Positions 1,150 to 38,556 of a stretch of DNA of 40,770 nt are shown here, piece after piece. This stretch comes from Escherichia phage mellemsur, in sequence record MN850570.1. One strand, 5' to 3'. The stretch's first letter is position 1. The number at the start of each line of letters is the position of its first letter. The position numbers and the translations under genes were made by a program. The notes below the pieces were generated by a model that was not told the DNA's origin, did no database searches, and was given only the letters and a program-made list of their open reading frames with translations.

Positions 1150-1485
1150 TTAGTCCTCGTTGTCAATACCAAAGAGATACATCTGCCCTTCATAGATGGG
1201 AGTCAGTACCTTGAGCCACGTCTGGACAGCCAGCGGCGCGGCGCTATGATGTTGCTCGTTCAGCAGGTCAATGATGAATGGCCTGCGTCCGGCGTACGCT
1301 TTGAAGCGGTCGATGATTTGCTCGTCGGTCGCCTCGCTCGTCAGCATCTGCTGACCTAAGATTTCAATCTGGTCGATAACGACCAGCCCTTCCTGACCAT
1401 CGGGCAGGCGGTACAGCAGTACCGCCACGTCTTGCCCATCCGTAATGTCAGGCCCACGGAATACCTTGACCGGATGCAGCGCCAT
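1150..1485 (-). CDS. hypothetical early protein
   Basis: 111-aa ORF in co-directional early gene string. Confidence 0.5.
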   Translation of the reverse strand: MALHPVKVFRGPDITDGQDVAVLLYRLPDGQEGLVVIDQIEILGQQMLTSEATDEQIIDRFKAYAGRRPFIIDLLNEQHHSAAPLAVQTWLKVLTPIYEGQMYLFGIDNED

Positions 1486-1487
1486 GC

Positions 1488-1772
1488 TTAGACCTCGAAG
1501 CTACCAATCGCTTCGTAGCCCTTGGCAGGCATGTTCACAGCCGCGCCCTCATTCAAGGTGCCGCCGTTCAGCAGGAACGCCAGCTCACCCATGCGGCTGA
1601 TGTCAGATTCCAGCGACGGCAGCGCAGCCTTCGCATCTTCAACCGTGTTCAGTTCCGGTACGTCTTTGCAGCCGGAGATACACAGCGCCATGTTGCCTTC
1701 TTCGAAGCCATCGCCCACGATTGCAACGATATCTTTTTCAGAAGCGGAGTAGTAAGCAGTTACTTTAGCCAT
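1488..1772 (-). CDS. hypothetical early protein (start at MAKVTAYY)
   Basis: Internal ATG with GAGGG Shine-Dalgarno; track N-terminal extension uses rare codons (agg, ata, cta). Confidence 0.5.
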   Translation of the reverse strand: MAKVTAYYSASEKDIVAIVGDGFEEGNMALCISGCKDVPELNTVEDAKAALPSLESDISRMGELAFLLNGGTLNEGAAVNMPAKGYEAIGSFEV

Positions 1773-1840
1773 GATAAAACCCTCAGTTAGTTGTGGCATG
1801 ATTGCCCTACAGCCCACCGCTATGAATGGCCTGTCAGTAA

Positions 1841-2371
1841 TCACGCAGCTTGTTTAGCCTTGCGCAGCAGGTCGAGCACGTTCTGAGGCACTACGACCTT
1901 GTTCGCGTCTTCGTCCTTGCCTTCGTGACGCAGCTCATTGGCCTTGTTCAGCGCCTTCTCAGCTTTGGCAATCAGCTTTTCGAGCGCATCTTGCAGGTCG
2001 AAGCCTTCGAACGCCTGCTCAGGCTTCATGCTCCACCACATAGTGGCTTTGGCCGTGTCAATGTTCGCCTTGATATACTCAGCGCCTTGCCAGCCGATGA
2101 AGCCCTGTTTACCGCCGTTCTCACCGATAACCAGACCGCCGAACTTGACGAACCAGTCTACCAGCGCCTTGCCACGAACGCCCTGACCGAGCTGATTCAC
2201 GAAGGATTCAGCGCGAGTGTAGTCGCCGTGATGATAAGCGTGCAGGATGATGCCGACCGCAACGTTCTGAATCTCGTTACGGAGTGAGTGCGCCTTCTTG
2301 ACGGTAGACTCAATAGCCTTGTCCAGAGCGGCAGCGTCTTTGAAGCTGGTGTATTTGATTGCAGTAGTCAT
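1841..2371 (-). CDS. hypothetical early protein (start at MTTAIKY)
   Basis: AAGGGG Shine-Dalgarno about 7 nt upstream of internal ATG; about 176 aa. Confidence 0.5.
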   Translation of the reverse strand: MTTAIKYTSFKDAAALDKAIESTVKKAHSLRNEIQNVAVGIILHAYHHGDYTRAESFVNQLGQGVRGKALVDWFVKFGGLVIGENGGKQGFIGWQGAEYIKANIDTAKATMWWSMKPEQAFEGFDLQDALEKLIAKAEKALNKANELRHEGKDEDANKVVVPQNVLDLLRKAKQAA

Positions 2372-2519
2372 GATGTTACCCCTTGTCAGGTTGGTTGATT
2401 TCACATAGCGCCTCGCAAGACGCTATAGGCTATCAGCCACGGCGACGGCTCAGTCGCTGGTCAATGACCCAGCAGGCCGCCGCTATAACACACAGTGCAG
2501 TGAACATAGTCATGCCCCC

Positions 2520-2909
2520 TTACTCCACTACCCAAAACAGTTCACCGTCATAAGTCCAAGCGGTATGCTGCCCGGCTTCCATCTGCTCGCCTGTTTTGCT
2601 GACCAGCTTGCCAGCAGGCTTGCCCGGATACGGTGAATCCATGAAGATTGCATCATCATCTTTGGTCACTACCATGATGCAGTCCTGTTCAAGAGCTTTA
2701 CAGAACAGCTTAACAGCCTGCCTGATTTCGTAGATTCCATCGACAGGAAATACCATGCTCAACTCATACTGATTGTCGAACTTGCCTGTCAGCGTGACCG
2801 GAATCACTCCGAACATATCCTGCACCGTTCGCAGTGCCTTGCAATGAAGCGCCAGATTAACACATTCAGCGTTATTCGGACGATATGCGCTTGCATAGAT
2901 ACGGTACAT
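2520..2909 (-). CDS. hypothetical protein, first gene downstream of early promoter cluster
   Basis: 129-aa ORF with GGAG Shine-Dalgarno; preceded by about 400-nt leader. Confidence 0.5.
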   Translation of the reverse strand: MYRIYASAYRPNNAECVNLALHCKALRTVQDMFGVIPVTLTGKFDNQYELSMVFPVDGIYEIRQAVKLFCKALEQDCIMVVTKDDDAIFMDSPYPGKPAGKLVSKTGEQMEAGQHTAWTYDGELFWVVE

Positions 2910-3341
2910 AGTTATTTCTCCAGTTGTTGGCTATTTTCAGGTGGATAGTGAACCCATTGTGACGCGCCGTACAGTCTGCACTCGTTGGCATTGATTGGCT
3001 TGTCGGATTCACTACCCTGAAAAATCGCCCCGCCCATTTCGCGCCGTGGATATTGTCTGCATCCACTCTCAGGAGTCCTCCAGCAGTCCGGCTCACCGTT
3101 TCCAGCTTGCCTACCTACCCGCTTCACTCCGCGCCTTATAAGACGTTCGGGATTGTGCTGATACTGCGCTGCGTCTATCGCGCTTCTCCGTTCCCATCGC
3201 ACCGGGCGCTACCCCTATTGCCTTTCGGCGGTGCCCTCACCAGTTCCTAGCTGCGCCGGATACCCATGAGGCCGAGACACTACGTGGCCTGTTTACGTTC
3301 ACTCAGAGCAGGTTGTTTTGCAACCTTTCAACTCGGTGCTG

Positions 3342-3370
3342 ATTACATCACATCGTATTCAGCGTGTCAA
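3342..3370 (-). promoter_or_regulatory. sigma70-like early promoter (TTGACA-N17-TGTAAT on minus strand)
   Basis: plus-strand attaca at 3342-3347 and tgtcaa at 3365-3370 with 17-nt spacer. Confidence 0.45.
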
Positions 3371-3421
3371 CTACTTTTTACTTCTGACTGACTGGCTTGC
3401 TGCCCTGTCAATCTGGAGCGT

Positions 3422-3450
3422 ATTACAGCATACTCGTTTCATCCTGTCAA
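3422..3450 (-). promoter_or_regulatory. sigma70-like early promoter (TTGACA-N17-TGTAAT on minus strand)
   Basis: plus-strand attaca 3422-3427 and tgtcaa 3445-3450, 17-nt spacer. Confidence 0.45.
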
Positions 3451-3558
3451 CCGTTTTATTCAGCGCCCGTTCTGAGATGAATAATCCGTACCAGTTTGCC
3501 TGCGTGTGTTTTAACGTCTTTATCAATGACTGTTTGGCTTGCTGGCTGACGTGGAAGC

Positions 3559-3587
3559 ATTACAGCATAGTGAGCTTGCCTTGTCAA
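3559..3587 (-). promoter_or_regulatory. sigma70-like early promoter (TTGACA-N17-TGTAAT on minus strand)
   Basis: plus-strand attaca 3559-3564 and tgtcaa 3582-3587, 17-nt spacer. Confidence 0.45.
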
Positions 3588-3661
3588 TACACTCCAGATT
3601 GTTAAAGAGCAGTGCTACCGTTCAATCTTGTCTACTGGGCTAGTGCCTTTCGACGTGATGA

Positions 3662-3691
3662 ATTACAGCACATAACCAAAACAGTTTGCAA
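3662..3691 (-). promoter_or_regulatory. sigma70-like early promoter (TTGCAA-N18-TGTAAT on minus strand)
   Basis: plus-strand attaca 3662-3667 and ttgcaa 3686-3691, 18-nt spacer. Confidence 0.4.
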
Positions 3692-3712
3692 GTATTATTT
3701 TCAAGAAAAGTG

Positions 3713-3731
3713 ATAAGTTACTGTAATCATT
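3713..3731. repeat. direct repeat copy 1 (ataagttactgtaatcatt) in AT-rich spacer
   Basis: 19/19 identity with 3792-3810; flanks also similar (gagatta / agataatta). Confidence 0.6.
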
Positions 3732-3791
3732 GAGATTAAAGTTTGATTGGATAATCACAACACTGGATAGAATACCGTTATCAGATAGGTC

Positions 3792-3810
3792 ATAAGTTAC
3801 TGTAATCATT
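3792..3810. repeat. direct repeat copy 2 (ataagttactgtaatcatt)
   Basis: identical to 3713-3731, about 79 bp apart. Confidence 0.6.
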
Positions 3811-3818
3811 AGATAATT

Positions 3819-3850
3819 ATGAAAGTGTCTATAGTGATATAGTATCGCTA
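3819..3850 (-). promoter_or_regulatory. conserved element copy B (minus strand reads tagcgatactatatcactatagacactttcat)
   Basis: 21-nt core tatcactatagacactttcat identical to 25712-25732 (there on plus strand); contains CACTATAGA, the core shared with T7/SP6-type promoters. Confidence 0.4.
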
Positions 3851-4320
3851 GATACGCAGAGCGAGCGCGGCGCAGCCGAAACAAGCGAGCGCCGAACGGA
3901 TGACGGATGGCAGACCGTAGGACTGACAGACGGCAGACAGTGAAGGCAGTAGGACAGTAACAGCAGGTAGCAGAGCATGACGCGCAGAGCTGGCAGGCGC
4001 AGACAGTAGACCGGCACACCACACAGCAGGACGGCAGCACCACGCCGCACACCGCTACACACCAGCACCACACAGCACCACGAAAAGAGACAGATACCCG
4101 CACGACCGAGCGCAGCACGCAGCACCGCACAGCCAGCGCAGAGCGTCCCCATAGGACAGCACCGCACAGCACAGCCAGCAGGACAGCGCACAGCACGTCA
4201 CACGGCAGACGATGAAACGCGACACGCACGAGCTATACCGCACGCAGGCAATCCTCTTGACGCGCCGCGCAGCGCACGCGAGCAAATATCGCGCACGTCG
4301 CGAGGCTAATCCGCGCACAC
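3851..4320. repeat. T-depleted (plus strand) degenerate short-repeat tract, presumed genome terminus / terminal-repeat region
   Basis: Manual count roughly 29 T in about 470 nt; recurring CAGCAC/CACAGCA/GACAGC units; lies between last late gene and early promoters. Confidence 0.65.
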
Positions 4321-4384
4321 GTCATGGGGGTACGCGCGGTCATTTGGGTCGAGGGAGGGCCAAGCATAAACGTGCAATTTTCAA

Positions 4385-4406
4385 GCCGGGGTATTGCACC
4401 CACGGC
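4385..4406 (-). terminator. possible hairpin downstream of endolysin gene
   Basis: imperfect GC stem gccgggg...ccacggc; A/U-rich but not U-run tail; weak. Confidence 0.2.
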
Positions 4407-4435
4407 CTGTTCATTGCCTCAGCTTTTGGATACCC

Positions 4436-4972
4436 CTACAGCGTCGCACAGTAAGCGCTACAGCGTTTTGCACGAGCAACCAAGGCATCCCTATAGCGAA
4501 CCACTGTCGGGGCTGTAGAAGCCTTTAGGAACGCAATACGAAGGTCACAGATGGCTGCTGCTGCGGAGTGAGGTTCCAGACGTTTGGCTGCTGCCACGGT
4601 AGCAGGGCCAATAACCCCGTCTTGTGCAACGCCGCATACCCGCTGTAGAGCTTTCGCCGCACGGGAGACACCGGAGTTGACACCGTAGTCAAACACGGCA
4701 CATGCAATCGCAGGGTGAAGCTCGTCACCTCGGATGGGGGCGTAGTAATCCCGTCGATAGATTGCTTCGGCTTGTGCTTTGGTGAGGTCTTTGATAGGCA
4801 CGCAAATAGTACCGCCAAGCCCAGTAGGGACACCACAAGCTCGGCCATCCAGTTTGCCATCACGAGCGTCGCTAATTCCATGATTCGTTTCCCCTCCGGT
4901 ATCGCCGGGCAGCTTGGTGTAACCACCTTCTGCCAGCCCGGTGAACCGCATACAGATTTCAAAGTTAGTCAT
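4436..4972 (-). CDS. endolysin, GH108-type N-acetylmuramidase with C-terminal peptidoglycan-binding-like domain
   Basis: N-terminal EGGY...D-x-GG-x-T-x-x-GI motif typical of GH108; no signal/SAR sequence; ATGA overlap with upstream gene. Confidence 0.75.
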   Translation of the reverse strand: MTNFEICMRFTGLAEGGYTKLPGDTGGETNHGISDARDGKLDGRACGVPTGLGGTICVPIKDLTKAQAEAIYRRDYYAPIRGDELHPAIACAVFDYGVNSGVSRAAKALQRVCGVAQDGVIGPATVAAAKRLEPHSAAAAICDLRIAFLKASTAPTVVRYRDALVARAKRCSAYCATL

Positions 4973-6028: not shown

Positions 6029-6709
6029 TTAAGAGAGTGCGATGCCAGTGATTACACCACTAGCGACAGTGAAGGTAACAGTATCCACGTAGGTGCCAGT
6101 TACCGGGATAGCCAGTGCATCACCGTTATCCACCATGGCCACAGTAGCGGCGAGGTTAAAGCCAGTGAGGGCACCGTTGCTTGCCACGAGAGCAGTGGCG
6201 TTATGAGCGTCAGCACCAGCAGAGTTACGGATGGAGTAAGTCGAACCGTTAAGCACTGCATCGGCGTTAGCTGGGAGCCGCACATTGCTCAGCAGGCCGT
6301 CAGCTACACGGGCGGTGGCAGTGGTGATGCCGAGGATAGAGCCGTCGAAGCGACGAATCTCAGTTGAGTCAGTGTGGTCTACCAGTGCTGCGGTAGACAG
6401 GACGAGCTGTACGTTATCCAGCGTGGTGCCAGTAACGTTGGCTGTGGCATTGTGCGCGTCGTTACCTGCGGAGTTGACCACAGATACAGTAGCGCCGTCA
6501 GCCAGCAGAGCGGAACCTTCCGGCGTACCAGCATAGCCAGCCGCCTCAAGTGCCGCCACCAGATTGGTGATAGCCGTTTCAATATCAGCAGCCTGAGCTG
6601 CCGTCACTGTACGGGTATCATTGATAAAGCGTTGAGTCACATTAGCTGCGATACCGCAGCGATAGCCAAGCTCATAACGCTGTGCATCAGTGATGGTGAT
6701 GATGGACAT
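6029..6709 (-). CDS. hypothetical protein with internal tandem duplication (possible virion-associated)
   Basis: 226 aa, Ala/Thr/Gly/Asn/Val-rich; NSAGNDAHNATANVTG and NSAGADAHNATALVAS repeat units; start overlaps terminase stop. Confidence 0.55.
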   Translation of the reverse strand: MSIITITDAQRYELGYRCGIAANVTQRFINDTRTVTAAQAADIETAITNLVAALEAAGYAGTPEGSALLADGATVSVVNSAGNDAHNATANVTGTTLDNVQLVLSTAALVDHTDSTEIRRFDGSILGITTATARVADGLLSNVRLPANADAVLNGSTYSIRNSAGADAHNATALVASNGALTGFNLAATVAMVDNGDALAIPVTGTYVDTVTFTVASGVITGIALS

Positions 6710-8469
6710 TATTTGATTCTCCGTCGCGTGCCGCGCACAGGTTTATGGCTACGCCACTTCGAGTCATCGTAACCCATTGGGTTGGCAAGGAACTCGCGTG
6801 CGGCAGCCGTCTCGCGCTTGGCAGCTTCTTCATGTTCGTCCTGCTGTAGCACCTCAGCGTGCAGGTACACGGCAGCAGATAGGGTTTCGATACGGTCATC
6901 GTGTGGGATGGATTGACGGTCTTGTGTCAGGTTCTGGAGCTGCCAGAACAGGCTGAACTCTCGACCACCGTTGTTCATCCCGCGACACAGCCGCAGGTCT
7001 TCTTCAACAACGCACCAGTGTACGACGACACGGTGACGCTGCATGATTGGGCCAAGGCGGTTGATGATACGCACCTCTTTCTGGCCGGACGAGTACACGC
7101 CTTCACAGCCAATGGCCAAGCTCTGGCGCTTAATCTCACCTCGGTACATGTTGGTCACGGTGCCGTGGCCCATGTTATCCTCAATGACCAGCCGTTTAAC
7201 CCCGGTTTCAGCGAGCCACTCTACCGCCGCCTTGATGTTTTCCTCCGTCTGGCCGCCGTGGTAGACGTGCATACCGATGACGTGGATAAACGGGCCGACA
7301 GAAGCGGTGGCAATGATAACTGATTCGTCCGACCCACCACCAGCAGGGTCAAGAAACGCCGAGGTATTTTCGAATGGTACATAAGTGTCCGAGAAATCAG
7401 CAGCCAAGAATAGCTGAGCACGAGCCAGTGGGAAATCCAGTGGCAGCTCGGCGGCATGGCGCGGGTGGTTCGACCAATGCAGAACCTCCGGCGCGGACTG
7501 CGTTGAGCCGTGGAAGAAGATTAAGTCTTTGAGATGTAACGTTTGTTTGAGCGCATCCGACAGCGACGTGTCCAGCATGAACTGCAACTGGAAGCCTGCC
7601 TGCTGGTAGTCTCGTTCGTTCTGCAACTGCTTTTCTTCGGAGTAGCGTTGCGGGTCAGTCTGTGCGCCACGGTTCCCAAGGATACCGTGTCCGGTACGCA
7701 GCTCAGGGTGGCCTTCCATCTTCTGCTTAATCCACGGGGCCAGACAGCCGCCGTAGCGTTCTTCTTCCTCAACCGTTGGGAAACGACCGGGCCAGATGCG
7801 AACGTCGAAGCCACGCTGTGGGAGCGTGTTGTAGATGGAGTCTTGAGTCTGTGGCGTGCCGAGGTACAGAATCTCTGCACCATCGTTGGCGATAGCCGCG
7901 AACTCTTTGGTCAGGGTGTTGATACGGGCGCGGTTGGCAGGAGAGCTACCGTTACTGGTAGTCTCCACGTCATCGGCAATCAACAGCGATACGTGGTTCC
8001 CCTGTAGCTGGCCGAAGATACCGACCGCTTTTACAGAGGGCTGTTTGTCAGGGATACGGAACGCGTGATGCACGTCGAAGCCGTCAGTAAATGACGTACG
8101 TGCGCCAGCGCGAGTCTCAGGCTTGAGCCATTCCAGACGTTCCCACTGCATGATAGCCGACACGATAGCGTGCGACAGCGTACCAGCATAGTCGTCGGAA
8201 CCGGACACAAGCAGGACAGTGGCGTTCGGCATCTGCACAAATTCGTACAGAGCGCGAGCAATACCGATGGTGGACTTTGCCTCACCACGCTGCGCCATGA
8301 CGCACTTGTTCTTGAGCGTCCTGTCGGCCATGTAGCGGCCAATGTCGAGCTGCATTTCAGTGAGGTCAAAGCCCAGCCATGCGAAGTAGTCATGCAGGAA
8401 CAGCGGGAAGTTGTTCTCGTAGTGGGCGCGAACGATTCCTGCCATCACCATGCGGCGTTGTAAATCCAT
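6709..8469 (-). CDS. terminase large subunit
   Basis: 586 aa (same length class as T7 gp19); position after tailspike and small ORF as in T7-like late operon. Confidence 0.75.
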   Translation of the reverse strand: MDLQRRMVMAGIVRAHYENNFPLFLHDYFAWLGFDLTEMQLDIGRYMADRTLKNKCVMAQRGEAKSTIGIARALYEFVQMPNATVLLVSGSDDYAGTLSHAIVSAIMQWERLEWLKPETRAGARTSFTDGFDVHHAFRIPDKQPSVKAVGIFGQLQGNHVSLLIADDVETTSNGSSPANRARINTLTKEFAAIANDGAEILYLGTPQTQDSIYNTLPQRGFDVRIWPGRFPTVEEEERYGGCLAPWIKQKMEGHPELRTGHGILGNRGAQTDPQRYSEEKQLQNERDYQQAGFQLQFMLDTSLSDALKQTLHLKDLIFFHGSTQSAPEVLHWSNHPRHAAELPLDFPLARAQLFLAADFSDTYVPFENTSAFLDPAGGGSDESVIIATASVGPFIHVIGMHVYHGGQTEENIKAAVEWLAETGVKRLVIEDNMGHGTVTNMYRGEIKRQSLAIGCEGVYSSGQKEVRIINRLGPIMQRHRVVVHWCVVEEDLRLCRGMNNGGREFSLFWQLQNLTQDRQSIPHDDRIETLSAAVYLHAEVLQQDEHEEAAKRETAAAREFLANPMGYDDSKWRSHKPVRGTRRRIK

Positions 8470-28195: not shown

Positions 28196-28510
28196 CTACT
28201 CCTTAACTTGTTTGCTCAGGTGCTCAATCAGCTTACCGTCTTCGGCGTACTGCTCAACGAGACCTACACCGTATGATGGCTTGCCCGGCTCGTCATATCC
28301 CGGCTGCGCTTGTTTGCGCTGGCCTAAGTCACTCAGTACAGAATGTTGCAGTGCCGGGTCATTCGTACCCGTACCGCCGCAGGCTTCGCAATCCATCAGG
28401 ACTACCTGCCCACCAATCAACATGCCACGGTAGGTGCCGCTACCCATGCAGGCACCACACACTTTATGGTCAACCACCGTGTCGTCAATGGCTCTTTGAT
28501 AACGACTCAT
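28196..28510 (-). CDS. small zinc-finger protein
   Basis: CGACMGSGTY...CEACGGTGT resembles DnaJ-type CxxCxGxG zinc-finger repeats; start moved to internal ATG. Confidence 0.45.
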   Translation of the reverse strand: MSRYQRAIDDTVVDHKVCGACMGSGTYRGMLIGGQVVLMDCEACGGTGTNDPALQHSVLSDLGQRKQAQPGYDEPGKPSYGVGLVEQYAEDGKLIEHLSKQVKE

Positions 28511-28518
28511 ACAATCTC

Positions 28519-28695
28519 CTACGCAAGACAGGCAAACAGAATAGCAGGGATGACAGCCAAGAATACCCACAGGATAAAGCCTGCTGCACCAGACCTGTCA
28601 ACGTGTGTCTTGTTGTACTGGTCGCACGCAGCCAGACAGACAACAGAGAACAGGGCAAACCATACCACAGCTACAATCCAAAGTAAAACACTCAT
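28519..28695 (-). CDS. small membrane protein
   Basis: about 58 aa with two hydrophobic helices; start moved to MSVLLWIV. Confidence 0.4.
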   Translation of the reverse strand: MSVLLWIVAVVWFALFSVVCLAACDQYNKTHVDRSGAAGFILWVFLAVIPAILFACLA

Positions 28696-29270
28696 TTGCG
28701 TTTCCTTAATTCGAGTTCCAGAATGAACAGCGCATTGCACGCAGCGTGCGCCAGATGGTGCAGGTTGGATTCGCTATCCAGTTCCTCACCCTTGCCCACC
28801 GCCGTCAGGTGCCGGAGCAGCGCTGACTTGTAGCGTTCCTCACCTTCCGGTACAGTCTGCCACGAGTGGGCTGCATACTTCTCAGCGCCGAAGGTGAGCA
28901 CGCTGGCTACAGCCTCCAGTGCATTCGGGCAGCCATCGAACAGCAGTGACATGCGGGGCTTGCCGCCGTCAAACTTCATGCCGCCCGGCCCAGCACTCTT
29001 GGCCACGGCCACCTCAACATCACTGGCCGGGTCGTACGGGTCAACCGGGATGAACGCAGTCTCGACTTCTTTCACCTCGAACGGCTCCAGTACCAGCGTG
29101 TGGGTCTTGCCATCCTTCACGCAGGTGTAGTAATCGCGGCTGTCATTCGGCACATCGTACGGTTCGTCGTACGTCAGGATGATACCTTGCTCAGCAATGT
29201 CGCTCAGCAGCGTGCCAGTACCCCAGTTGCGTGTCGGGTCTAAGATAAACTTCTGACCTTTCTTACCCAT
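28692..29270 (-). CDS. putative dATP/dGTP diphosphohydrolase-domain protein
   Basis: C-terminal half KFDGGKPR...VLTFGAEKY...W...LRHL...ELDSESNLHHLAHAACNALF matches my recollection of the dGTP diphosphohydrolase N-terminal domain family; GGAGG Shine-Dalgarno before MGKKGQ start. Confidence 0.45.
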   Translation of the reverse strand: MGKKGQKFILDPTRNWGTGTLLSDIAEQGIILTYDEPYDVPNDSRDYYTCVKDGKTHTLVLEPFEVKEVETAFIPVDPYDPASDVEVAVAKSAGPGGMKFDGGKPRMSLLFDGCPNALEAVASVLTFGAEKYAAHSWQTVPEGEERYKSALLRHLTAVGKGEELDSESNLHHLAHAACNALFILELELRKRK

Positions 29271-29790
29271 TCGCCTTACCTCCATCGACCTTAGAATCAG
29301 CGCCATCGTATTTAGCATTGGCATGAACATACTCATGATTGTCCTCGTACCGGGTCACTTCATAAACCGTGATGCCGAGGCCACGCATGAAGTCAACGAT
29401 GTGCGGCAGGTCGTCGAAAGCACACACGATGTTCTCAATGCCAATGTCCTCCAGCGCCGCCAGCTTCATCTCTGTGTCTTTACGGCAGTCGCCAATCTCT
29501 CTCATGATTAGTTTGTCGTAAACCACACCAGCTTCGTCGAGCCACTGCTCGGTTACTTCACGGGCCACGGCTCCGCGTCCGGTCAGGATGATAATGCGAT
29601 ACGTGAGGGCCAGAGCGTTCACAATATCAATCGTGTCCTGAAACGCAGGGTCGTCAGCGCCAGCCAAGTTGAACTCGGCCCACGCTTCATCAAGGTGCCG
29701 ACGCTCCGGTGGAGGCAGCAGGTGTAAACGCCAACGGCCATCGGCCAGCGTGCCGTCAAGGTCTACTACTACGGTGTCTTTCATGTGCAT
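29263..29790 (-). CDS. HAD-family polynucleotide 3'-phosphatase (T4 Pnk phosphatase-domain-like, no kinase domain)
   Basis: DLDGTLAD (HAD motif I), TGRG, GDCRKD, AFDD collinear with phosphatase domain of T4 polynucleotide kinase; no P-loop. Confidence 0.65.
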   Translation of the reverse strand: MHMKDTVVVDLDGTLADGRWRLHLLPPPERRHLDEAWAEFNLAGADDPAFQDTIDIVNALALTYRIIILTGRGAVAREVTEQWLDEAGVVYDKLIMREIGDCRKDTEMKLAALEDIGIENIVCAFDDLPHIVDFMRGLGITVYEVTRYEDNHEYVHANAKYDGADSKVDGGKANG

Positions 29791-29980
29791 CGTGTGCTTC
29801 CTCAAGAGCGAAAATAATATCTCGGACATATGCCCAAGGCAACCAGACTTCCTCACCGTCCTGCGAAATGCAGACGGTGCCATCCTTATACAGCTCGACC
29901 TGAGTGTTGGCCTCCCACTCAATGGAGAGGCCATCCTCTTTGAGCTGCACCACATCTTCTTGGTACAGTGTTCTCGTCAC
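29756..29980 (-). CDS. hypothetical small protein
   Basis: 74-aa ORF with GTG start overlapping stop of upstream gene; overlaps HAD start. Confidence 0.35.
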   Translation of the reverse strand: MTRTLYQEDVVQLKEDGLSIEWEANTQVELYKDGTVCISQDGEEVWLPWAYVRDIIFALEEAHDAHERHRSSRP

Positions 29981-31104
29981 TCCAACATCTCCGGGCTAAT
30001 GGTGAATCGTGCGACCTCACCGTACCGGGCATGATAAGTAATCACGCTCGCGCTGCGCTCACTCAGCCAGCCACCACGAGAAGCATAGGCATCCTTCGCC
30101 GCCAGCGTGCGGTGCTGCTCGACAATCATGACACCAGACTCTAGCACCTTCTTGTGATGCAGGTGGCCAACGTGTGCATACGCATGTTTGGTTCGGCCAT
30201 ACACTTCGCGGAACTTGGCGACCAGTACAGTCTCCAGTTGTTCTGCCTTACGCTTGTGACCATGGTGGAAGAACAGCGCCGTCTCGCCATGCTCGTAGCA
30301 GTAGTACGGGTCAGGGCTGCGGTCAACAGTGACACGCGGCTCGTCGGCGTACAGTACATGCAGCAGCTCACGCATCCAGATTGAGCTGGCCATGTCGTGG
30401 TTGCCCTCGGCACACACTACGTGAACCTGCGGGAACTTCTCCAGCAGCATACCAATGATGCGGCGCTGCGCCCTGATAGCCACACGTACCAGTTTCTGGA
30501 ATCGCGTGTCAGCATCAAGCACATGCCCACTCGATGGCGTTACTGCATCCAACCCATCCCAGTGCAGGAAGTCACCGAGCTGGCCGAAGATAGCAACCTG
30601 TGCTGGCGGCGCACTGGCAATCGCTGCCGAGAACCACTTGACCAGCAGGTCTTCCGCAATCTTCATATCCCAGTCGTCACCAGTTTCCTCTGCCCACGCC
30701 AGCATACCGAGGTGGTAGTCAGTCAGCACGAACAGGTTCAGCAGCTCAGCAGGTGCCGCGCCCCCGGCGTACGGTCGGGCAGCTTCCGGGGTGATGCTCT
30801 CGCTAATTGCATCGACAGCTTCTTGCAGCAGCGCCAGCTCCTGCTCGCGGTCGAGTGCCGTCTTCACCCACTGCATGACAACGTTGCCGTCCTTATCGTA
30901 CAGCGTGGACGTACCCTTCACCGCATACGGCTCCGGCACTTCCTTCGTCATGTCGTGCTCAGGACTCCAGCCGCTCTTGGCAAGCTGGCGCTTCCGGTAT
31001 CGAATGGCGCTCTCGGTCATGTCATGCTTCTCAGCAATGGCCTTGGTGCCAAGCCCTTCGGCAATGTCTTCTTTGAGTTGGTGATTAGTTAACTTGGTCA
31101 TCAT
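29977..31104 (-). CDS. calcineurin-like metallophosphoesterase with N-terminal HTH-like region
   Basis: Motifs TDYHLG, GDFLH, GNHD, HHGH, GHLHH (binuclear metallophosphoesterase signature); N-terminal about 50 aa helix-turn-helix-like. Confidence 0.7.
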   Translation of the reverse strand: MMTKLTNHQLKEDIAEGLGTKAIAEKHDMTESAIRYRKRQLAKSGWSPEHDMTKEVPEPYAVKGTSTLYDKDGNVVMQWVKTALDREQELALLQEAVDAISESITPEAARPYAGGAAPAELLNLFVLTDYHLGMLAWAEETGDDWDMKIAEDLLVKWFSAAIASAPPAQVAIFGQLGDFLHWDGLDAVTPSSGHVLDADTRFQKLVRVAIRAQRRIIGMLLEKFPQVHVVCAEGNHDMASSIWMRELLHVLYADEPRVTVDRSPDPYYCYEHGETALFFHHGHKRKAEQLETVLVAKFREVYGRTKHAYAHVGHLHHKKVLESGVMIVEQHRTLAAKDAYASRGGWLSERSASVITYHARYGEVARFTISPEMLE

Positions 31105-32571: not shown

Positions 32572-33471
32572 TTACAGACTCGGCAGGCCGAAGTCAGCAT
32601 CGCCAGTCACGTCCGGCTCAGGCTTGGATGCTGCCGACTTGTCAGCCGCGCCAGCCGTTGCCAGCTCCTGCACTTCCTGCTTAACCTCAGCCACTTCCTC
32701 CGGCTGGCCCACGTCGCCCAGCTCAGGCAGCTCAGCGATTGCCGAGCCAGCACCAGCGCCGTTCAGCAGCAGGTCAAGCGGAGAGCCGGGGAACTCAGGA
32801 GATTCCAGCAGCTTGTCCTGAATCCAGTTCTTGGATTTGCCATCGTCGTTCTTGCCTTCGATGTACAGGGATTCCCAGTCCTCTTTGGTCGGACGGTTCC
32901 ACAGGAACAGCTTGAACAGCGTCTCGTCCTCAACCTCCGGCACCGGGTACGGCTGGTCAGTCACCGGGTCAACCGCGAGCATGATGTTCTCAAGGTCGAT
33001 GTTGGCGTACACCTTCTTGTTCTCACCCTCGCCCGATTCGTTGTGGATAATCGGAACAATGAAGGTGTGGTTCAGAAGCTGCGCGAAGTGCTTCGCAGTC
33101 TTGTCCGGGTTCATACGCTTGAACAGTTTGTAAGCGCCGGACTTGCTGTTCAGGTCTTTCTTCACAGCGATGAACTGCGTGCGCACCTTGCCCGGCACCA
33201 TCTTACCATTGACAACTTCATGGTAAGTCTCGCCGTTCTTGGCCTTGCCCCACAGTGCGAACTGGAGGAAGAACTTATTGACAGGCGGTTTGTCCGGTGC
33301 CTGCTTGGTCACGCTCGGCCCCACTTCAATGTAGCCAACCAGTCGCGCCAGTGCCTTACCTTCCGGCAGCAGCTTACCACCACCGGACGTGGCTTCGTTA
33401 AAGTCAAGTTCTTCCTCGTCAACATACTGTTCGACGATGGAGTTCATGCGGTTCAATACAGATGCGGTCAT
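32572..33471 (-). CDS. hypothetical protein with acidic C-terminal tail (possible DNA-replication accessory / ssDNA-binding)
   Basis: 299 aa immediately downstream of DNA polymerase; acidic C-terminus ending ...DADFGLPSL; function speculative. Confidence 0.45.
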   Translation of the reverse strand: MTASVLNRMNSIVEQYVDEEELDFNEATSGGGKLLPEGKALARLVGYIEVGPSVTKQAPDKPPVNKFFLQFALWGKAKNGETYHEVVNGKMVPGKVRTQFIAVKKDLNSKSGAYKLFKRMNPDKTAKHFAQLLNHTFIVPIIHNESGEGENKKVYANIDLENIMLAVDPVTDQPYPVPEVEDETLFKLFLWNRPTKEDWESLYIEGKNDDGKSKNWIQDKLLESPEFPGSPLDLLLNGAGAGSAIAELPELGDVGQPEEVAEVKQEVQELATAGAADKSAASKPEPDVTGDADFGLPSL

Positions 33472-35943: not shown

Positions 35944-36627
35944 CTATGCTGTGCCACCCAAATGGTCTGGCATACGATTGACGTATGCTTCGATGCGCTC
36001 GCGGTGTGTCTCGTGCTTCTCCAGCATGTAGGCCACACGACTCAGGCTGGCATCCGGTCGGCAGACACGGAGAGTCAGCAGGTCGTCGTAGCTTTCAACC
36101 AGACTGGCCAGCGCCGGATACCACTGCACGTCCTCGGCTGTTAGCTTCGGCTCGTACGGGTACGCCATGAACTCACCGGGGTCACGGCTGTACTGCCCGG
36201 AGTATCGCGGGATACTGGACGGGAAGTAGAACTGGTTCAGGTTGAAGTCGAACTCGCTCAGCACCTGTGACCAGCAGCCACATTTACTAATGATGATGTC
36301 AACCGGGCCGAGCTTGAACACACCGTACAGACGGGAACCGAAGTCGCCGCCCTCGGCTGCGTCGTGGTAGCTTGGCATGTACTCATACGGCAGGTTGTGC
36401 TGCTTGGCGTACGCTTCGAGGTTGGTGTCCAACCATTCGAGTCTGCCGACCACACGGCTTACATCCCCACCCCAACCAAAGACCACGATGTCATAGTCCT
36501 TCGGCTCAACACCCAGCGCTGTATCCCTTGCCCCTCCCCCGGCAACCACAAAGTTCAGCTCATGTGATTGCAGCAGACGGCAGATGTCCTCTGCCCATAC
36601 GCGCTTGACTTCTGCATTACTTATCAT
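35944..36627 (-). CDS. Pol-beta-superfamily nucleotidyltransferase, CCA-adding-enzyme/poly(A)-polymerase head-domain-like
   Basis: FVVAGGGARDTALGVEPKDYDIVV matches GG-x-x-RD-x-x-LG...KD-x-D-x-VV signature of class II tRNA nucleotidyltransferases; only 227 aa. Confidence 0.6.
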   Translation of the reverse strand: MISNAEVKRVWAEDICRLLQSHELNFVVAGGGARDTALGVEPKDYDIVVFGWGGDVSRVVGRLEWLDTNLEAYAKQHNLPYEYMPSYHDAAEGGDFGSRLYGVFKLGPVDIIISKCGCWSQVLSEFDFNLNQFYFPSSIPRYSGQYSRDPGEFMAYPYEPKLTAEDVQWYPALASLVESYDDLLTLRVCRPDASLSRVAYMLEKHETHRERIEAYVNRMPDHLGGTA

Positions 36628-36928: not shown

Positions 36929-37291
36929 TCACCACTTACTCGGCACGCTGCCGGGCAGGTAGCTGGTCGTCGGCTTACGCTCAACGTACTGGTTGTACAC
37001 TGACATGGCATCACACGCTGCTTGGTACAGACGCTCAGCCTCAGCGTAGCTCCAGTCCTCGGCAGTCGCCTCCGGTTCAGGCGTGGCTGCTACATGCGGT
37101 GCGTCACCAATCAGCGCCCACGACGCATGGCGTGCAGTCCACGAGCCACTGATACCAGAACCACGCGCACCATCGTCGCGGTCAATGCTCACGTACTTGT
37201 CGTTGATGTCAACCACAGTACCCTTCGCACCGTAATGCACACTGCGTGCATCAATGTTTACTACTCGGTCGCCTACCTTCAAATGGCTCAT
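36929..37291 (-). CDS. hypothetical protein with KOW/SH3-like N-terminal motif
   Basis: 120 aa; KVGDRVVNIDARSVHYGAKGTVV resembles KOW motif; overlaps helicase stop. Confidence 0.45.
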   Translation of the reverse strand: MSHLKVGDRVVNIDARSVHYGAKGTVVDINDKYVSIDRDDGARGSGISGSWTARHASWALIGDAPHVAATPEPEATAEDWSYAEAERLYQAACDAMSVYNQYVERKPTTSYLPGSVPSKW

Positions 37292-38556
37292 TACATGTCC
37301 TCGTATTGGCAGCGGTCAGCAAAGAAGTGTACCTGCGACCGCACGTTGCTTGGACGCCCAGCAATCTGGCGTTTGTTCTTCGGCGTACTGACACCGCGCC
37401 GCGCCGCCAGTGATGGGTCATCCACACTGCCGAGCATCACGATAACATCAGTCGCCCCTTGGATACCAGTCTTGGAATCCTTGAGCGCATCCAGTGCCGG
37501 GAACATATCATCGGCACCATCAGCAGATACCTGAACCGTAGCCAGTGACACGAAGTTGTGTCGCACTGCCAGCTCACGTACCTCCTGCCATAGCTGCTCA
37601 ACCTGACTCGCCTTGTTGCTCGACGGGTCAGACACAGACAGCTTGAAGTTGGCAAGCATATCCCACACCACGATGCACGGGTTCATCGCTTCGATAACCT
37701 GCTCAGCTTTTGCCAGCGTCGCGCCGTGCATATCCTTCACACGAATCACATTGGCTGGCGCACCCAGTGCCTTGGCGTACGCAGCGTGCAGCTTGCTCCT
37801 GTCCTCACCCAGCTCTTTCAGTTCCGGGAGCGTACAGTTGAGCGCCGCCTGATAGATGCGCGGGATGATGTTGATGCCCTGCCCTTCGTTGTTGAACCAC
37901 AGGATTGGTCTGCCCGGATACAGCTTCGCCGCTGTCGCCGCCATTCGCGTAAGGTTAAACGCGATGAAGCTGGTCTTCCCACTGTCAGGTCGGGCAGCGA
38001 TTGCAACGGAGTCGCCGGGAAGCAGTACGCGTACGCTATCTTGCAGACACATGAGACCGAACTTAAAACCTTGGTCATCATCAGTGCGATTAATAATGTC
38101 AACCACATCGTCATCGACGTAATCGGTAACTGATGATTGGCCCCGACTGCGGCGTGCGCCCTCAGCCAGACGGCCAAGCTCATAGATAATATCCAGTTCT
38201 TCACCATTGTCGTACCTCTGCATCAGCAGGTTCGCACGGCCAGCGGTGTCCAACTCTACGAGCTGGTCAAGGATGCCTTCCTTCTGTTCCTTCGTGGGCT
38301 GATACTCTTTGAGCTGAGCACACAGGGAATCAAAGGCCGCCATCTGTTCAGGCGTGCTGCCTGTCTTTAAACGAACGTGCGTACCCAGTGTCTCAATGTC
38401 AATGAAGTCACTGTCCGGGAACGCGTCAAAGTATGAGCCGTAAGCACGCAGCATATAGCCCGTGGTCTGGCTCATGGTATCTTCCGGGATGGCGTGTCGC
38501 AGGGAGTTATACTTCCCGCGCTCGCGCATCACCGTTAACAACAGCTTGTCAAGCAC
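37291..38556 (-). CDS. replicative DNA helicase (DnaB/gp4-like)
   Basis: 421 aa; Walker A AIAARPDSGKTSF; adjacent to putative primase. Confidence 0.7.
   Translation of the reverse strand: MLDKLLLTVMRERGKYNSLRHAIPEDTMSQTTGYMLRAYGSYFDAFPDSDFIDIETLGTHVRLKTGSTPEQMAAFDSLCAQLKEYQPTKEQKEGILDQLVELDTAGRANLLMQRYDNGEELDIIYELGRLAEGARRSRGQSSVTDYVDDDVVDIINRTDDDQGFKFGLMCLQDSVRVLLPGDSVAIAARPDSGKTSFIAFNLTRMAATAAKLYPGRPILWFNNEGQGINIIPRIYQAALNCTLPELKELGEDRSKLHAAYAKALGAPANVIRVKDMHGATLAKAEQVIEAMNPCIVVWDMLANFKLSVSDPSSNKASQVEQLWQEVRELAVRHNFVSLATVQVSADGADDMFPALDALKDSKTGIQGATDVIVMLGSVDDPSLAARRGVSTPKNKRQIAGRPSNVRSQVHFFADRCQYEDM

Follow-up and report, generated by a model that had tools for sequence, protein, structure and literature searches.

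A stand-alone relative of the phosphatase half of T4 polynucleotide kinase, encoded in the middle of a conserved cassette in Escherichia phage mellemsur and related phages

Described phosphatases of the Pnkp type

In PseT/Pnkp of phage T4, a C-terminal phosphatase (PDB 1ltq, 2ia5 and 5uj0) is joined to an N-terminal P-loop kinase, and the enzyme has the RNA ligase RnlA as its partner. The catalytic roles of D165 and D167 in this phosphatase have been described (PMC3592404). Ser211 touches the phosphate, Lys258 steadies the transition state and Asp278 coordinates Mg2+, and the enzyme cleaves 3'-dTMP at 24 s-1 as well as the 3'-phosphate ends of DNA and RNA (PMC3592404). Pnkp1 of Capnocytophaga gingivalis (4xrp, 4xru) is a kinase-phosphatase of 312 amino acids which works with Rnl and Hen1. 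Phosphatases without a kinase part are found in eukaryotes, where yeast Tpp1 is a kinase-less DNA 3'-phosphatase. Arabidopsis ZDP, likewise of the PNKP-type HAD 3'-phosphatases, needs no 5'-kinase for its work (PMC10573277). ZDP, which has zinc fingers, and Tpp1 serve in base-excision repair and belong to another HAD subfamily, PNK3P (PF08645). Class B/C acid phosphatases, such as AphA, and plant VSP are further relatives to be compared; the class B/C enzymes are secreted or periplasmic and their caps are different.

The DNA analysed here (the window) is a stretch of 40,770 nucleotides from Escherichia phage mellemsur (MN850570.1), which covers all but about 1.4-1.9 kb of the phage genome, belongs to Bonnellvirus and is about 99% identical to phage megetsur. 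It encodes a HAD protein (Table 1) that differs from T4 Pnkp in three respects: it has no N-terminal P-loop kinase domain, it carries a 16-residue insertion after motif I that is absent from T4, and its gene has no T4 RnlA-type partner and lies in a context of dNTP metabolism instead of a pseT-rnlA region. Unlike the Pnkp1-Rnl-Hen1 system, the window contained no detectable kinase domain, Pnk-type kinase or T4 RnlA-type ligase, and unlike ZDP and Tpp1 the HAD protein did not match PNK3P. No structural difference separates it from the stand-alone phage proteins of phrog_415/PF25109, which are its own family.

The gene, its active site and its family

The translation of the HAD gene opens MHMKDTVVVDLDGTLADGRW... 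The mechanical open reading frame extends to 29955, and we placed the likely start at the ATG at 29790 because a GAGGAAG sequence precedes it, homologs have the same start and the same 528-nt coding sequence is annotated in megetsur. An in-frame extension upstream of this start overlaps another gene. A scan for promoters and terminators gave nothing above shuffled expectation.

Table 1. Coordinates of the HAD phosphatase gene, its motifs and its neighbours in the window
Feature	Position	Strand	Details
Stand-alone Pnkp-type HAD (DxDxT) phosphatase gene	29263..29790	minus	175 aa and TAA stop
Putative Shine-Dalgarno-like GAGGAAG	29797..29803	minus	6 nt upstream of ATG 29790; read from the sequence
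HAD motif I, D10-L-D12-G-T14	29749..29763	minus	predicted nucleophile Asp10, general acid/base Asp12; T4 D165-V-D167-G-T
Motif II, T70-G71-R72	29575..29583	minus	T4 S211-G-R213 in two alignments
D101-C-R103-K-D105 ... K109	29464..29490	minus	T4 GDTRKD254 stretch and motif III Lys258
Motif IV, D126-D127	29410..29415	minus	T4 D277-D278, Mg2+ ligands; plus strand gtcgtc, coding GACGAC
DUF5664/dGTP_diPhyd_N (C-terminal) protein, downstream partner	28692..29270	minus	192 aa; PF18909, E 4.8e-33
Metallophosphoesterase (MPE), upstream partner	29977..31104	minus	375 aa; N-terminal HTH and metallophosphoesterase domain; phrog_704 'DNA repair exonuclease', E 1e-146
Intervening ORF that overlaps the MPE gene and the HAD gene	29756..29980	minus	74 aa; megetsur_29; conserved in Bonnellvirus-like loci

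A search against HAD and PNK 3'-phosphatase profiles, proposed as a check in the first-pass annotation, gave a match to Pfam PF25109 (HAD_PNKP) with an E-value of 1.2e-14 and 55 bits, against a gathering cut-off of 27.6, over residues 5-146 and profile positions 2-139 of 143, and the E-value for phrog_415 was 8.8e-55. Both matches are therefore far above chance. Pnkp1 and T4 Pnkp were the top PDB sequence matches, and Foldseek ranked the T4 Pnkp phosphatase 5uj0 first (E 4e-9). The protein has the Rossmannoid alpha/beta core fold of the HAD superfamily; the solved structures closest to it are Pnkp phosphatase domains, and class B/C acid phosphatases such as AphA form a second tier of structural neighbours. 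In the Pfam profile search, neither PF13419 (MisB type) nor NT5C was matched, and the class B acid phosphatase profile PF03767 reached 24 bits, below its gathering threshold of 27. The possibility raised at first reading that the best homologs might be 5'(3')-deoxyribonucleotidases was not borne out, as enzymes of this kind (NT5C, mdN/cdN type) gave neither a profile match nor the closest fold. Profile, PDB matches, alignment and Foldseek agree with the original proposal that this is a HAD phosphatase of the Pnkp type and that it runs collinear with the phosphatase half of T4 Pnkp. The gene is genuine and related to this half, without the kinase part.

The active-site motifs recognised at first reading were all recovered in the sequence and the alignment. 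In addition to motif I, TGRG begins with T70, GDCRKD corresponds to G100-D-C-R-K-D105 and is followed by K109, and AFDD contains F125-D126-D127. D10 and D12 were invariant in an alignment of 46 homologs, R72 was invariant in the alignments, and D101, R103, D105 and K109 were invariant in both homolog alignments. In T4 numbering, the equivalents of D165, D167, R176, R213, D254, K258 and D278 are family-invariant, and at least 90% of the homologs keep T70, the equivalent of S211, and one aspartate of the motif IV pair. R21, R72 and D105, all of them invariant, align with Arg176, Arg213 and Asp254, which are reportedly essential in T4 Pnkp. The protein has the motif I Asp, motif II Ser/Thr, motif III Lys and motif IV acidic pair of the DxDxT superfamily and, judged from its sequence, is apparently active. 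By homology to the chemistry of T4 Pnkp, it would be a catalytically competent, Mg2+-dependent DxDxT phosphomonoesterase of the Pnkp phosphatase type, in which a covalent Asp10-phosphate intermediate would form, Asp12 would act as general acid/base, Thr70 and Lys109 would hold the phosphate, and Asp126/Asp127 would hold the metal.

The absence of a P-loop kinase domain was confirmed, since the 175 residues include no Walker A motif and AAA_33 was not matched. Across all open reading frames of the window, the pattern [AG]xxxxGK[STD] occurred only in the helicase (37291-38556) and, as a weak match, in 32572-33471, and none of them matched the T4 Pnk kinase domain, the gp1-like dNMP kinase family or T4-type RnlA. 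Thus, the two hallmarks of a bifunctional PseT-type system, a P-loop (GxxGxGKS) kinase in the same chain and a companion T4-type RNA ligase, were not found. We also considered a split Pnkp, in which the P-loop gene found beside the HAD gene in siphoviruses would encode a separate Pnk kinase. This reading is disfavoured because hhalign prefers T4 gp1 dNMP kinase (75 columns, probability 57.6%) to T4 Pnk kinase, where it covers only the 22-residue P-loop, because single-sequence and profile PDB searches with the P-loop neighbour gave P-loop-level matches only, and because an HMM built from three Pnk-kinase sequences matched solely a fragment of RB49 pseT.

Homologs of the HAD protein were present in 1,251 phage records and 8,760 representative clusters, and nearly all are stand-alone; the stand-alone state is therefore the rule in a very common family and not an oddity. 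The protein itself is ordinary: its family is catalogued, with megetsur_30, Shfl1p19, TLS Gp09 and MR4 gp27 as named members of phrog_415/PF25109, and identical or near-identical products occur in sequenced phages, the HHU8 product being 100% identical. Members are usually mislabelled "polynucleotide kinase", with 3'-phosphatase, acid phosphatase and putative phosphatase as other labels; the kinase label is routine in this family, which is present in more than 1,200 phage genomes. A stand-alone family protein has also been stated to phosphorylate oligonucleotides (PMC11447400). Both the label and this statement conflict with the missing kinase domain, and our literature search found no published enzyme assay for any stand-alone phage member. 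The insertion after motif I (HRLHLLP..W.EFN.A..DD) is present in most family members. Its interpretation as a cap marking mononucleotide specificity was rejected because the kinase-fused homologs P0387 and P0307 carry it too.

Neighbouring genes in the window and in related phages

The module in which the HAD gene is embedded also encodes a DNA polymerase, a 5'-3' exonuclease and endonuclease VII. The ATG of the downstream DUF5664 gene (29268-29270) overlaps the HAD stop codon (ATGGGTAA), and in one homolog, P0243, HAD_PNKP and DUF5664 are naturally fused in one polypeptide. For phage Wayne, the DUF5664 protein has been proven to be a pyrophosphohydrolase, which hydrolyses dATP, dUTP and dGTP to dNMPs (PMC12884076). 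The upstream MPE is a probable nuclease. Its motifs DxH, GD, GNHD and GHxH were seen in the translation and are invariant in the homolog alignment, and an AF2 model (pLDDT 79) had Mre11 and the PolD DP1 exonuclease as best folds, a generic match with a weak TM of about 0.4; at this low TM the fold discriminates poorly between Pnkp/lambda-phosphatase and nuclease types, even though Mre11 and PolD-DP1 rank first. Homologs of the 74-aa open reading frame were found at the equivalent position in five loci (L007-L011). PDB sequence searches with the MPE, the DUF5664 protein, the NTase and a 299-aa phrog_862 protein gave nothing useful, and these four proteins and the HAD protein matched none of the PADLOC models, which date from 2023 and predate Metis.

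We extended the comparison to 80 related IMG/VR loci with 6-kb flanks, which form only 13 clusters at 70% identity, so that counts from them lack independence. Downstream, the next gene that could be recognised was a T4-gp1-like dNMP kinase in 60 loci and DUF5664 in 18, together 78/80, and was directly adjacent to the HAD gene in 54 of the 80. DUF5664 was adjacent in all its 18 loci, and in 24/80 the dNMP kinase gene was not adjacent but lay about 0.6-2.2 kb away; the dNMP kinase identity is given by the PHROG label and the moderate hhalign match (57.6%), the PDB profile search being uninformative. The HAD gene is thus the middle gene of a conserved cassette of MPE, HAD and then dNMP kinase or DUF5664. 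In Pseudomonas phage MR4 the MPE, HAD and dNMP kinase genes are followed, after the last of these, by a DNA ligase gene. RB49-like phages hold a stand-alone HAD gene beside nrdAB, overlapping the end of nrdB, in addition to full pseT and rnlA.

The first-pass annotation had suggested a division of labour of the phosphatase with the MPE and with the NTase (35944-36627). A link to the first partner fits the synteny, with the MPE gene directly upstream in 49 of the 80 loci, and a link to the second is not supported: some 6 kb and the DNA polymerase gene separate the NTase gene from the HAD gene, and within the 6-kb flanks it was found in a single locus (L025). The suggestion is thus only partly supported, and the RNA/DNA end-healing pathway that it implies is not: neither the Pnk kinase domain nor RnlA was found in any of the 80 loci, and the conserved partners are enzymes of the deoxynucleotide pool. 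The MPE, the dNMP kinase or DUF5664 partners and the nrdAB linkage place the family in deoxynucleotide metabolism, and the gene neighbours point to recycling of DNA building blocks rather than RNA repair.

Possible substrates and roles

As our best explanation, held tentatively, the HAD protein may be a deoxynucleotide 3'-phosphatase in a module for DNA breakdown and dNTP supply; we infer its substrate, its 3' specificity and, with them, its physiological role. It would not be the remnant of an RNA-repair enzyme. Within the cassette, which lies in the DNA-metabolism module beside the 5'-3' exonuclease and endonuclease VII, it would strip 3'-phosphates from deoxynucleotide substrates of DNA breakdown and turnover, such as DNA ends and oligonucleotides with a 3'-phosphate, 3'-dNMPs and 3',5'-bisphosphates, and the products could feed the line from 5'-dNMP through dNDP to dNTP for phage DNA synthesis. 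Mre11-type MPE nucleases and 5'-3' exonucleases usually yield 3'-OH and 5'-phosphate, which counts against a supply of 3'-phosphates, and synteny within a compact replication module is weak evidence for pathway coupling. Phages T1 and TLS break down host DNA and reuse its nucleotides (PMC11447400), and authors working on Drexlerviridae independently proposed the gene pair as an addition to the replication module for nucleotide supply (PMC13164509). The partner pattern could help to find the genes with which T1-like and phiKMV-like phages recycle host DNA.

It is unlikely that the enzyme instead cleans DNA ends of the phage genome in the manner of ZDP and Tpp1, by clearing nicks and gaps of blocking 3'-phosphates for the phage DNA polymerase and a ligase, which could then finish repair or replication. 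E. coli Xth and Nfo already supply 3'-phosphatase activity, which counts against such a role, and the window has no recognised DNA ligase. The tight coupling and natural fusion with the DUF5664 pyrophosphohydrolase and the nrdAB linkage in RB49-like phages would also be left unexplained. This reading shares its family and active-site evidence with the deoxynucleotide 3'-phosphatase, and DNA-end cleaning would suit both the replication and recombination module around the gene and the DNA ligase at the end of the MR4 series; moreover, ZDP suffices for gap repair without a kinase domain (PMC10573277).

Somewhat less probable is a mononucleotide phosphatase acting on 5'-dNMPs, either in a cascade with DUF5664 from dNTP through dNMP to deoxynucleoside or in editing of the dNMP pool ahead of the dNMP kinase, with possible targets among nucleotides that are unwanted or act as signals, for example dUMP, or methylated dNMPs from host DNA. 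Both alternative downstream partners make or use 5'-dNMPs, the fusion with DUF5664 exists, and the sub-threshold PF03767 similarity and AphA-like second-tier neighbours point in the same direction, class B/C acid phosphatases such as AphA being nucleotidases. On the other side, T4 Pnkp is not known to hydrolyse 5'-phosphates, the R21, R72 and D105 residues common to T4 Pnkp are invariant, PF13419, NT5C and PADLOC models were not matched, and a general 5'-nucleotidase beside a dNMP kinase would be a futile cycle. Among characterised proteins, the nearest relatives act on phosphates in the 3'- and 2'-positions (PMC3592404). Bacterial MPE and HAD pairs do act on nucleotides, since MisB, a HAD protein, removes the phosphate from the alarm nucleotide m6dAMP (bioRxiv 10.1101/2025.11.05.686725) and PUA-Cal-HAD is a second example.

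RNA end-healing like that of T4 Pnkp, in which tRNAs cleaved by anticodon nucleases or toxins of the host would lose their 2',3'-cyclic or 3'-phosphates to the phosphatase and host or unrecognised phage proteins would take the kinase and ligase steps, is improbable. The homology to the RNA-repair enzymes T4 Pnkp and Pnkp1 speaks for it, as do the kinase-fused P0387 and P0307, which are of the same HAD subtype including the insertion, and a ToxIN-escape gene of phage PhiM1 in the same module as the HAD gene. Against it, the window and the 6-kb flanks of the 80 loci contained no Pnk kinase or T4 RnlA-type ligase, the NTase gene is unlinked, and RB49-like phages with complete Pnkp and RnlA still keep the stand-alone gene. 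A break with 3'-OH and 5'-OH ends cannot be ligated without a kinase, and removal of the 3'-phosphate also deprives host RtcB of its substrate.

Equally remote is the idea that the cassette conditions the nucleotide pool and serves neither salvage nor repair, the HAD enzyme, alone or in the DUF5664 cascade, dephosphorylating certain deoxynucleotides from breakdown of the host chromosome; candidates may be methylated dNMPs such as m6dAMP, the alarm signal of the Metis and PUA-Cal-HAD defences. If true, such conditioning would allow host DNA to be recycled without tripping nucleotide-sensing immunity, would mirror the bacterial MPE and HAD defence pairs and would explain what a family found in more than 1,200 sequenced phages does.

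Identity and active site of the phosphatase

The greater part of a Bonnellvirus (Autographiviridae) genome lies in the window, and all genes in the region of the HAD phosphatase are on the minus strand (Table). The coordinates of this gene agree with the first-pass annotation, and its mechanical ORF reaches upstream as far as 29955. We favoured the ATG at 29790 over this extension, since GAGGAAG is found in the sequence 6 nt ahead of it, aligned homologs share the start position, and the same 528-nt CDS is annotated as megetsur_30 in the ~99% identical phage megetsur.

Features of the window and of related phage loci
Sequence	Feature	Coordinates	Strand	Remarks
Window	HAD phosphatase	29263..29790	minus	175 residues, starting MHMKDTVVVDLDGTLAD
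Window	DUF5664/dGTP_diPhyd_N protein	28692-29270	minus	neighbour of phosphatase
Window	HTH-metallophosphoesterase (MPE)	29977-31104	minus	divergent; phrog_704; neighbour of phosphatase
Window	endonuclease VII, 5'-3' exonuclease, DNA polymerase			neighbours of phosphatase
Window	phrog_862 protein	32572-33471	minus	299 aa; neighbour of phosphatase
Window	phrog_1614 'nucleotidyltransferase'	35944-36627	minus	on far side of DNA polymerase from phosphatase
Window	small Cys-rich protein	28196-28570	minus	phrog_6060 'anti-termination protein Q-like'
Window	terminator-like hairpin	29821-29838	minus	CTTGGGCATATGTCCGAG then ATATTATTTT
Escherichia phage vB_EcoM_011D4 (L005, RB49-like)	stand-alone phosphatase; rnlA with complete pseT	3989-4465 and 6381-8462		both phosphatase forms in one genome
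Kagunavirus vB_EcoS_XY1 (L006)	187-aa ORF	3441-4004		between intact MPE and HAD gene
Pseudomonas phage MR4 (L088)	MPE, HAD, dNMP-kinase-like P-loop protein, DNA ligase	1340-4627		uninterrupted row
Pectobacterium phage PhiM1 (L004)	PhiM1_23	1749-2006		about 2 kb upstream of HAD gene

Pfam searches with the protein matched HAD_PNKP (PF25109; E 1.2e-14, 55 bits against a cut-off of 27.6, 138 of 143 profile positions); class B acid phosphatase and generic HAD models scored below threshold, and NT5C did not match at all. In PHROGs it matched phrog_415, labelled "polynucleotide kinase" (E 8.8e-55), and the only meaningful PDB sequence matches were Capnocytophaga Pnkp1 and T4 Pnkp. From 46 homologs, AlphaFold2 gave a confident model (pLDDT 87.8, pTM 0.83) in which residues 161-175 are disordered, and Foldseek ranked the T4 Pnkp phosphatase (5uj0) first (E 4e-9). 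On this evidence, the best homologs are therefore not 5'(3')-deoxyribonucleotidases. No Walker A motif is present in the protein. Across all window ORFs the pattern [AG]xxxxGK[STD] occurred only in the helicase and at one weak site, and neither a T4 Pnk kinase domain nor the gp1-like dNMP kinase family nor a T4-type RnlA was found among them. The earlier description of a Pnkp-type phosphatase devoid of a kinase domain thus holds.

Alignment with the T4 phosphatase domain paired D10, D12, R21, T70, R72, D105, K109 and D126/D127 with T4 Pnkp D165, D167, R176, S211, R213, D254, K258 and D277/D278, respectively. In the homolog alignment, D10, D12, R21, R72, D105 and K109 were invariant throughout the stand-alone family, T70 was kept in at least 90% of homologs, and each motif IV aspartate was invariant or nearly so. 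Wang and Shuman (2002) and Zhu et al. (2007) reportedly found R176, R213 and D254 essential in T4 Pnkp. The T4 roles of D165, D167, S211, K258 and D278 have been described (PMC3592404). A Mg2+-dependent phosphomonoesterase working via an aspartyl-phosphate intermediate can safely be inferred. After motif I the window protein has a 16-residue insertion, whereas T4 Pnkp does not; the kinase-fused relatives P0387 and P0307 also carry it, so it is uninformative on substrate size.

A family of stand-alone phosphatases

Homologs were detected by tblastn in 1,251 phage records, including phiKMV-like podoviruses, T1-like phages, Webervirus, Kagunavirus, RB49-like myoviruses, actinophages and others, annotated variously, with "polynucleotide kinase", "3'-phosphatase" and "acid phosphatase" among the labels. 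When 1.84 billion cluster representatives were searched with a profile, 8,760 matched at E <= 1e-10; nearly all of the best 150 were 140-240 aa long and consisted of this domain alone, which makes the stand-alone form the norm. The window phosphatase is a typical member of this catalogued, abundant phage family. The literature treats such genes as kinases, TLS Gp09 being stated to "terminally phosphorylate oligonucleotides" (PMC11447400), and our literature search turned up no stand-alone phage protein that had been assayed. The family is frequently misannotated, and a corrected annotation is one useful outcome of this analysis.

RB49-like genomes were matched by tblastn in two places. In Krischviruses a complete pseT (kinase plus phosphatase) adjoins rnlA, and, after nrdA, the nrdB end is overlapped by the start of a separate stand-alone phosphatase gene. 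The stand-alone enzyme thus does not replace Pnkp, and here again it is linked to dNTP synthesis. The distance between rnlA with complete pseT and the stand-alone gene at the nrdB end is about 4 kb in vB_EcoM_011D4.

Gene order and partner proteins

Gene order was analyzed in 80 IMG/VR loci with 6-kb flanks, whose ORFs were classed by phmmer against window and annotated-phage reference proteins. In 60 loci the next recognised gene downstream of HAD encoded a phrog_139 P-loop protein ("dNMP kinase"), and in 18 it encoded DUF5664; this gene was directly adjacent to HAD in 54. An MPE (phrog_704 or phrog_221) lay directly upstream in 49 of the 80, five of these with the 74-aa ORF alone in between, in keeping with the proposed association with the MPE. 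Because the 80 loci collapse into 13 clusters at 70% identity, these counts are not independent observations; 11 of the 13 clusters showed the pattern. Neither a Pnk kinase domain, also sought with a small HMM, nor RnlA occurred within the flanks of any locus. Annotated phages bore this out: the order was MPE, HAD, dNMP kinase in Kagunavirus XY1; HAD, dNMP kinase in T1-like Shfl1; MPE, HAD, DUF5664, RNAP in PhiM1; and exonuclease, endonuclease, MPE, HAD, dNMP kinase, DNA ligase in MR4. Together, MPE, HAD and either dNMP kinase or DUF5664 make up a conserved cassette, offered here as a testable hypothesis.

The additional ORF of XY1 joins an HNH-endonuclease fragment to the C-terminal half of the same MPE family, and looks like an MPE copy that was duplicated or disrupted by a homing endonuclease. 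PhiM1_23 is a small gene of the same module; phage mutated in it escape ToxIN abortive infection.

In hhalign comparisons the phrog_139 family aligned with T4 gp1 dNMP kinase over 75 columns, including GKDT, DR and LNGKSP, at a probability of only 57.6%, and with T4 Pnk kinase over the 22-residue P-loop only, which disfavours the P-loop gene as a separated Pnk kinase. A profile search of the PDB with this family yielded matches at the P-loop level only. The MR4 row formally resembles a phosphatase-kinase-ligase repair cassette.

The DUF5664 (PF18909) protein of Arthrobacter phage Wayne hydrolyses dATP, dUTP and dGTP to dNMPs (PMC12884076), which gives this formerly uncharacterised domain a function. 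The DUF5664 start codon of the window overlaps the stop codon of the phosphatase gene (ATGGGTAA), and P0243 is a natural single-chain fusion of HAD_PNKP and DUF5664. The DUF5664 protein of the window has an N-terminal extension of ~90 residues without family match, whereas that of PhiM1 is the 100-aa domain alone.

The MPE family has at least 4,932 homologs, which are about 60% identical even between distant lineages of phages and share invariant DxH, GD, GNHD and GHxH metal-binding motifs; precomputed matches place an N-terminal HTH domain in many. The window MPE had no Pfam Metallophos match at E <= 0.01, its PHROG label is 'DNA repair exonuclease', and its model was nearest to Mre11 and the PolD DP1 exonuclease, with low TM scores.

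Predicted role

T4 Pnkp dephosphorylates 3'-dNMPs (24 s-1 with 3'-dTMP) and also DNA and RNA 3'-phosphate ends (PMC3592404), so family membership cannot tell mononucleotide from polynucleotide substrates, and the predicted substrate class is less certain than the chemistry. Since the conserved partners all make or use 5'-dNMPs or degrade DNA, T1-type phages are known to reuse host DNA by way of genes yet to be identified (PMC11447400), and other authors have guessed at a nucleotide-supply boost for the same gene pair (PMC13164509), we tentatively favour, at slightly less than even chances, a deoxynucleotide 3'-phosphatase within a DNA-breakdown and dNTP-supply module. The main weakness of this model is the source of the 3'-phosphates, since nucleases of the types encoded next to the gene normally produce 3'-OH ends. 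Cleaning of phage DNA ends in the manner of ZDP or Tpp1 has a precedent (PMC10573277) and is unlikely; that the protein acts as a 5'-dNMP phosphatase editing the nucleotide pool is quite improbable. T4-like RNA healing is very improbable, with no Pnk-type kinase or T4-type RnlA detected in the window or within the flanks of the 80 loci to complete the pathway.

Bacterial defence pairs that sense nucleotides or destroy them combine the same two superfamilies, a calcineurin-like MPE and a HAD phosphatase. MisB, the HAD protein of Metis, removes the alarm nucleotide m6dAMP (bioRxiv 10.1101/2025.11.05.686725), and PUA-Cal-HAD depletes dNTPs (bioRxiv 10.64898/2026.01.15.699771). The phage HAD is of Pnkp type and not of PF13419 type, and PADLOC detected neither homology of the cassette to defence models nor a match for the neighbours of the phosphatase. 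By analogy, an anti-sensing role of the phage cassette would be a long shot.

The earlier interpretation is thus supported in part. A suggested division of labour with the phrog_1614 'nucleotidyltransferase' was not supported, this protein being recognised within the 6-kb flanks in only one of the 80 loci; it is conserved in the replication module and has no Pfam or PDB match. The terminator-like hairpin, 31 nt ahead of the phosphatase ATG, falls in the 3'-terminal part of the 74-aa ORF; hairpins of this kind were no more numerous in the region than expected from shuffling. The phrog_862 protein is conserved between DNA polymerase and exonuclease in most phiKMV-like loci, and the phrog_6060 protein sits just upstream of the RNA polymerase gene, a position conserved in Bonnellvirus-like loci.
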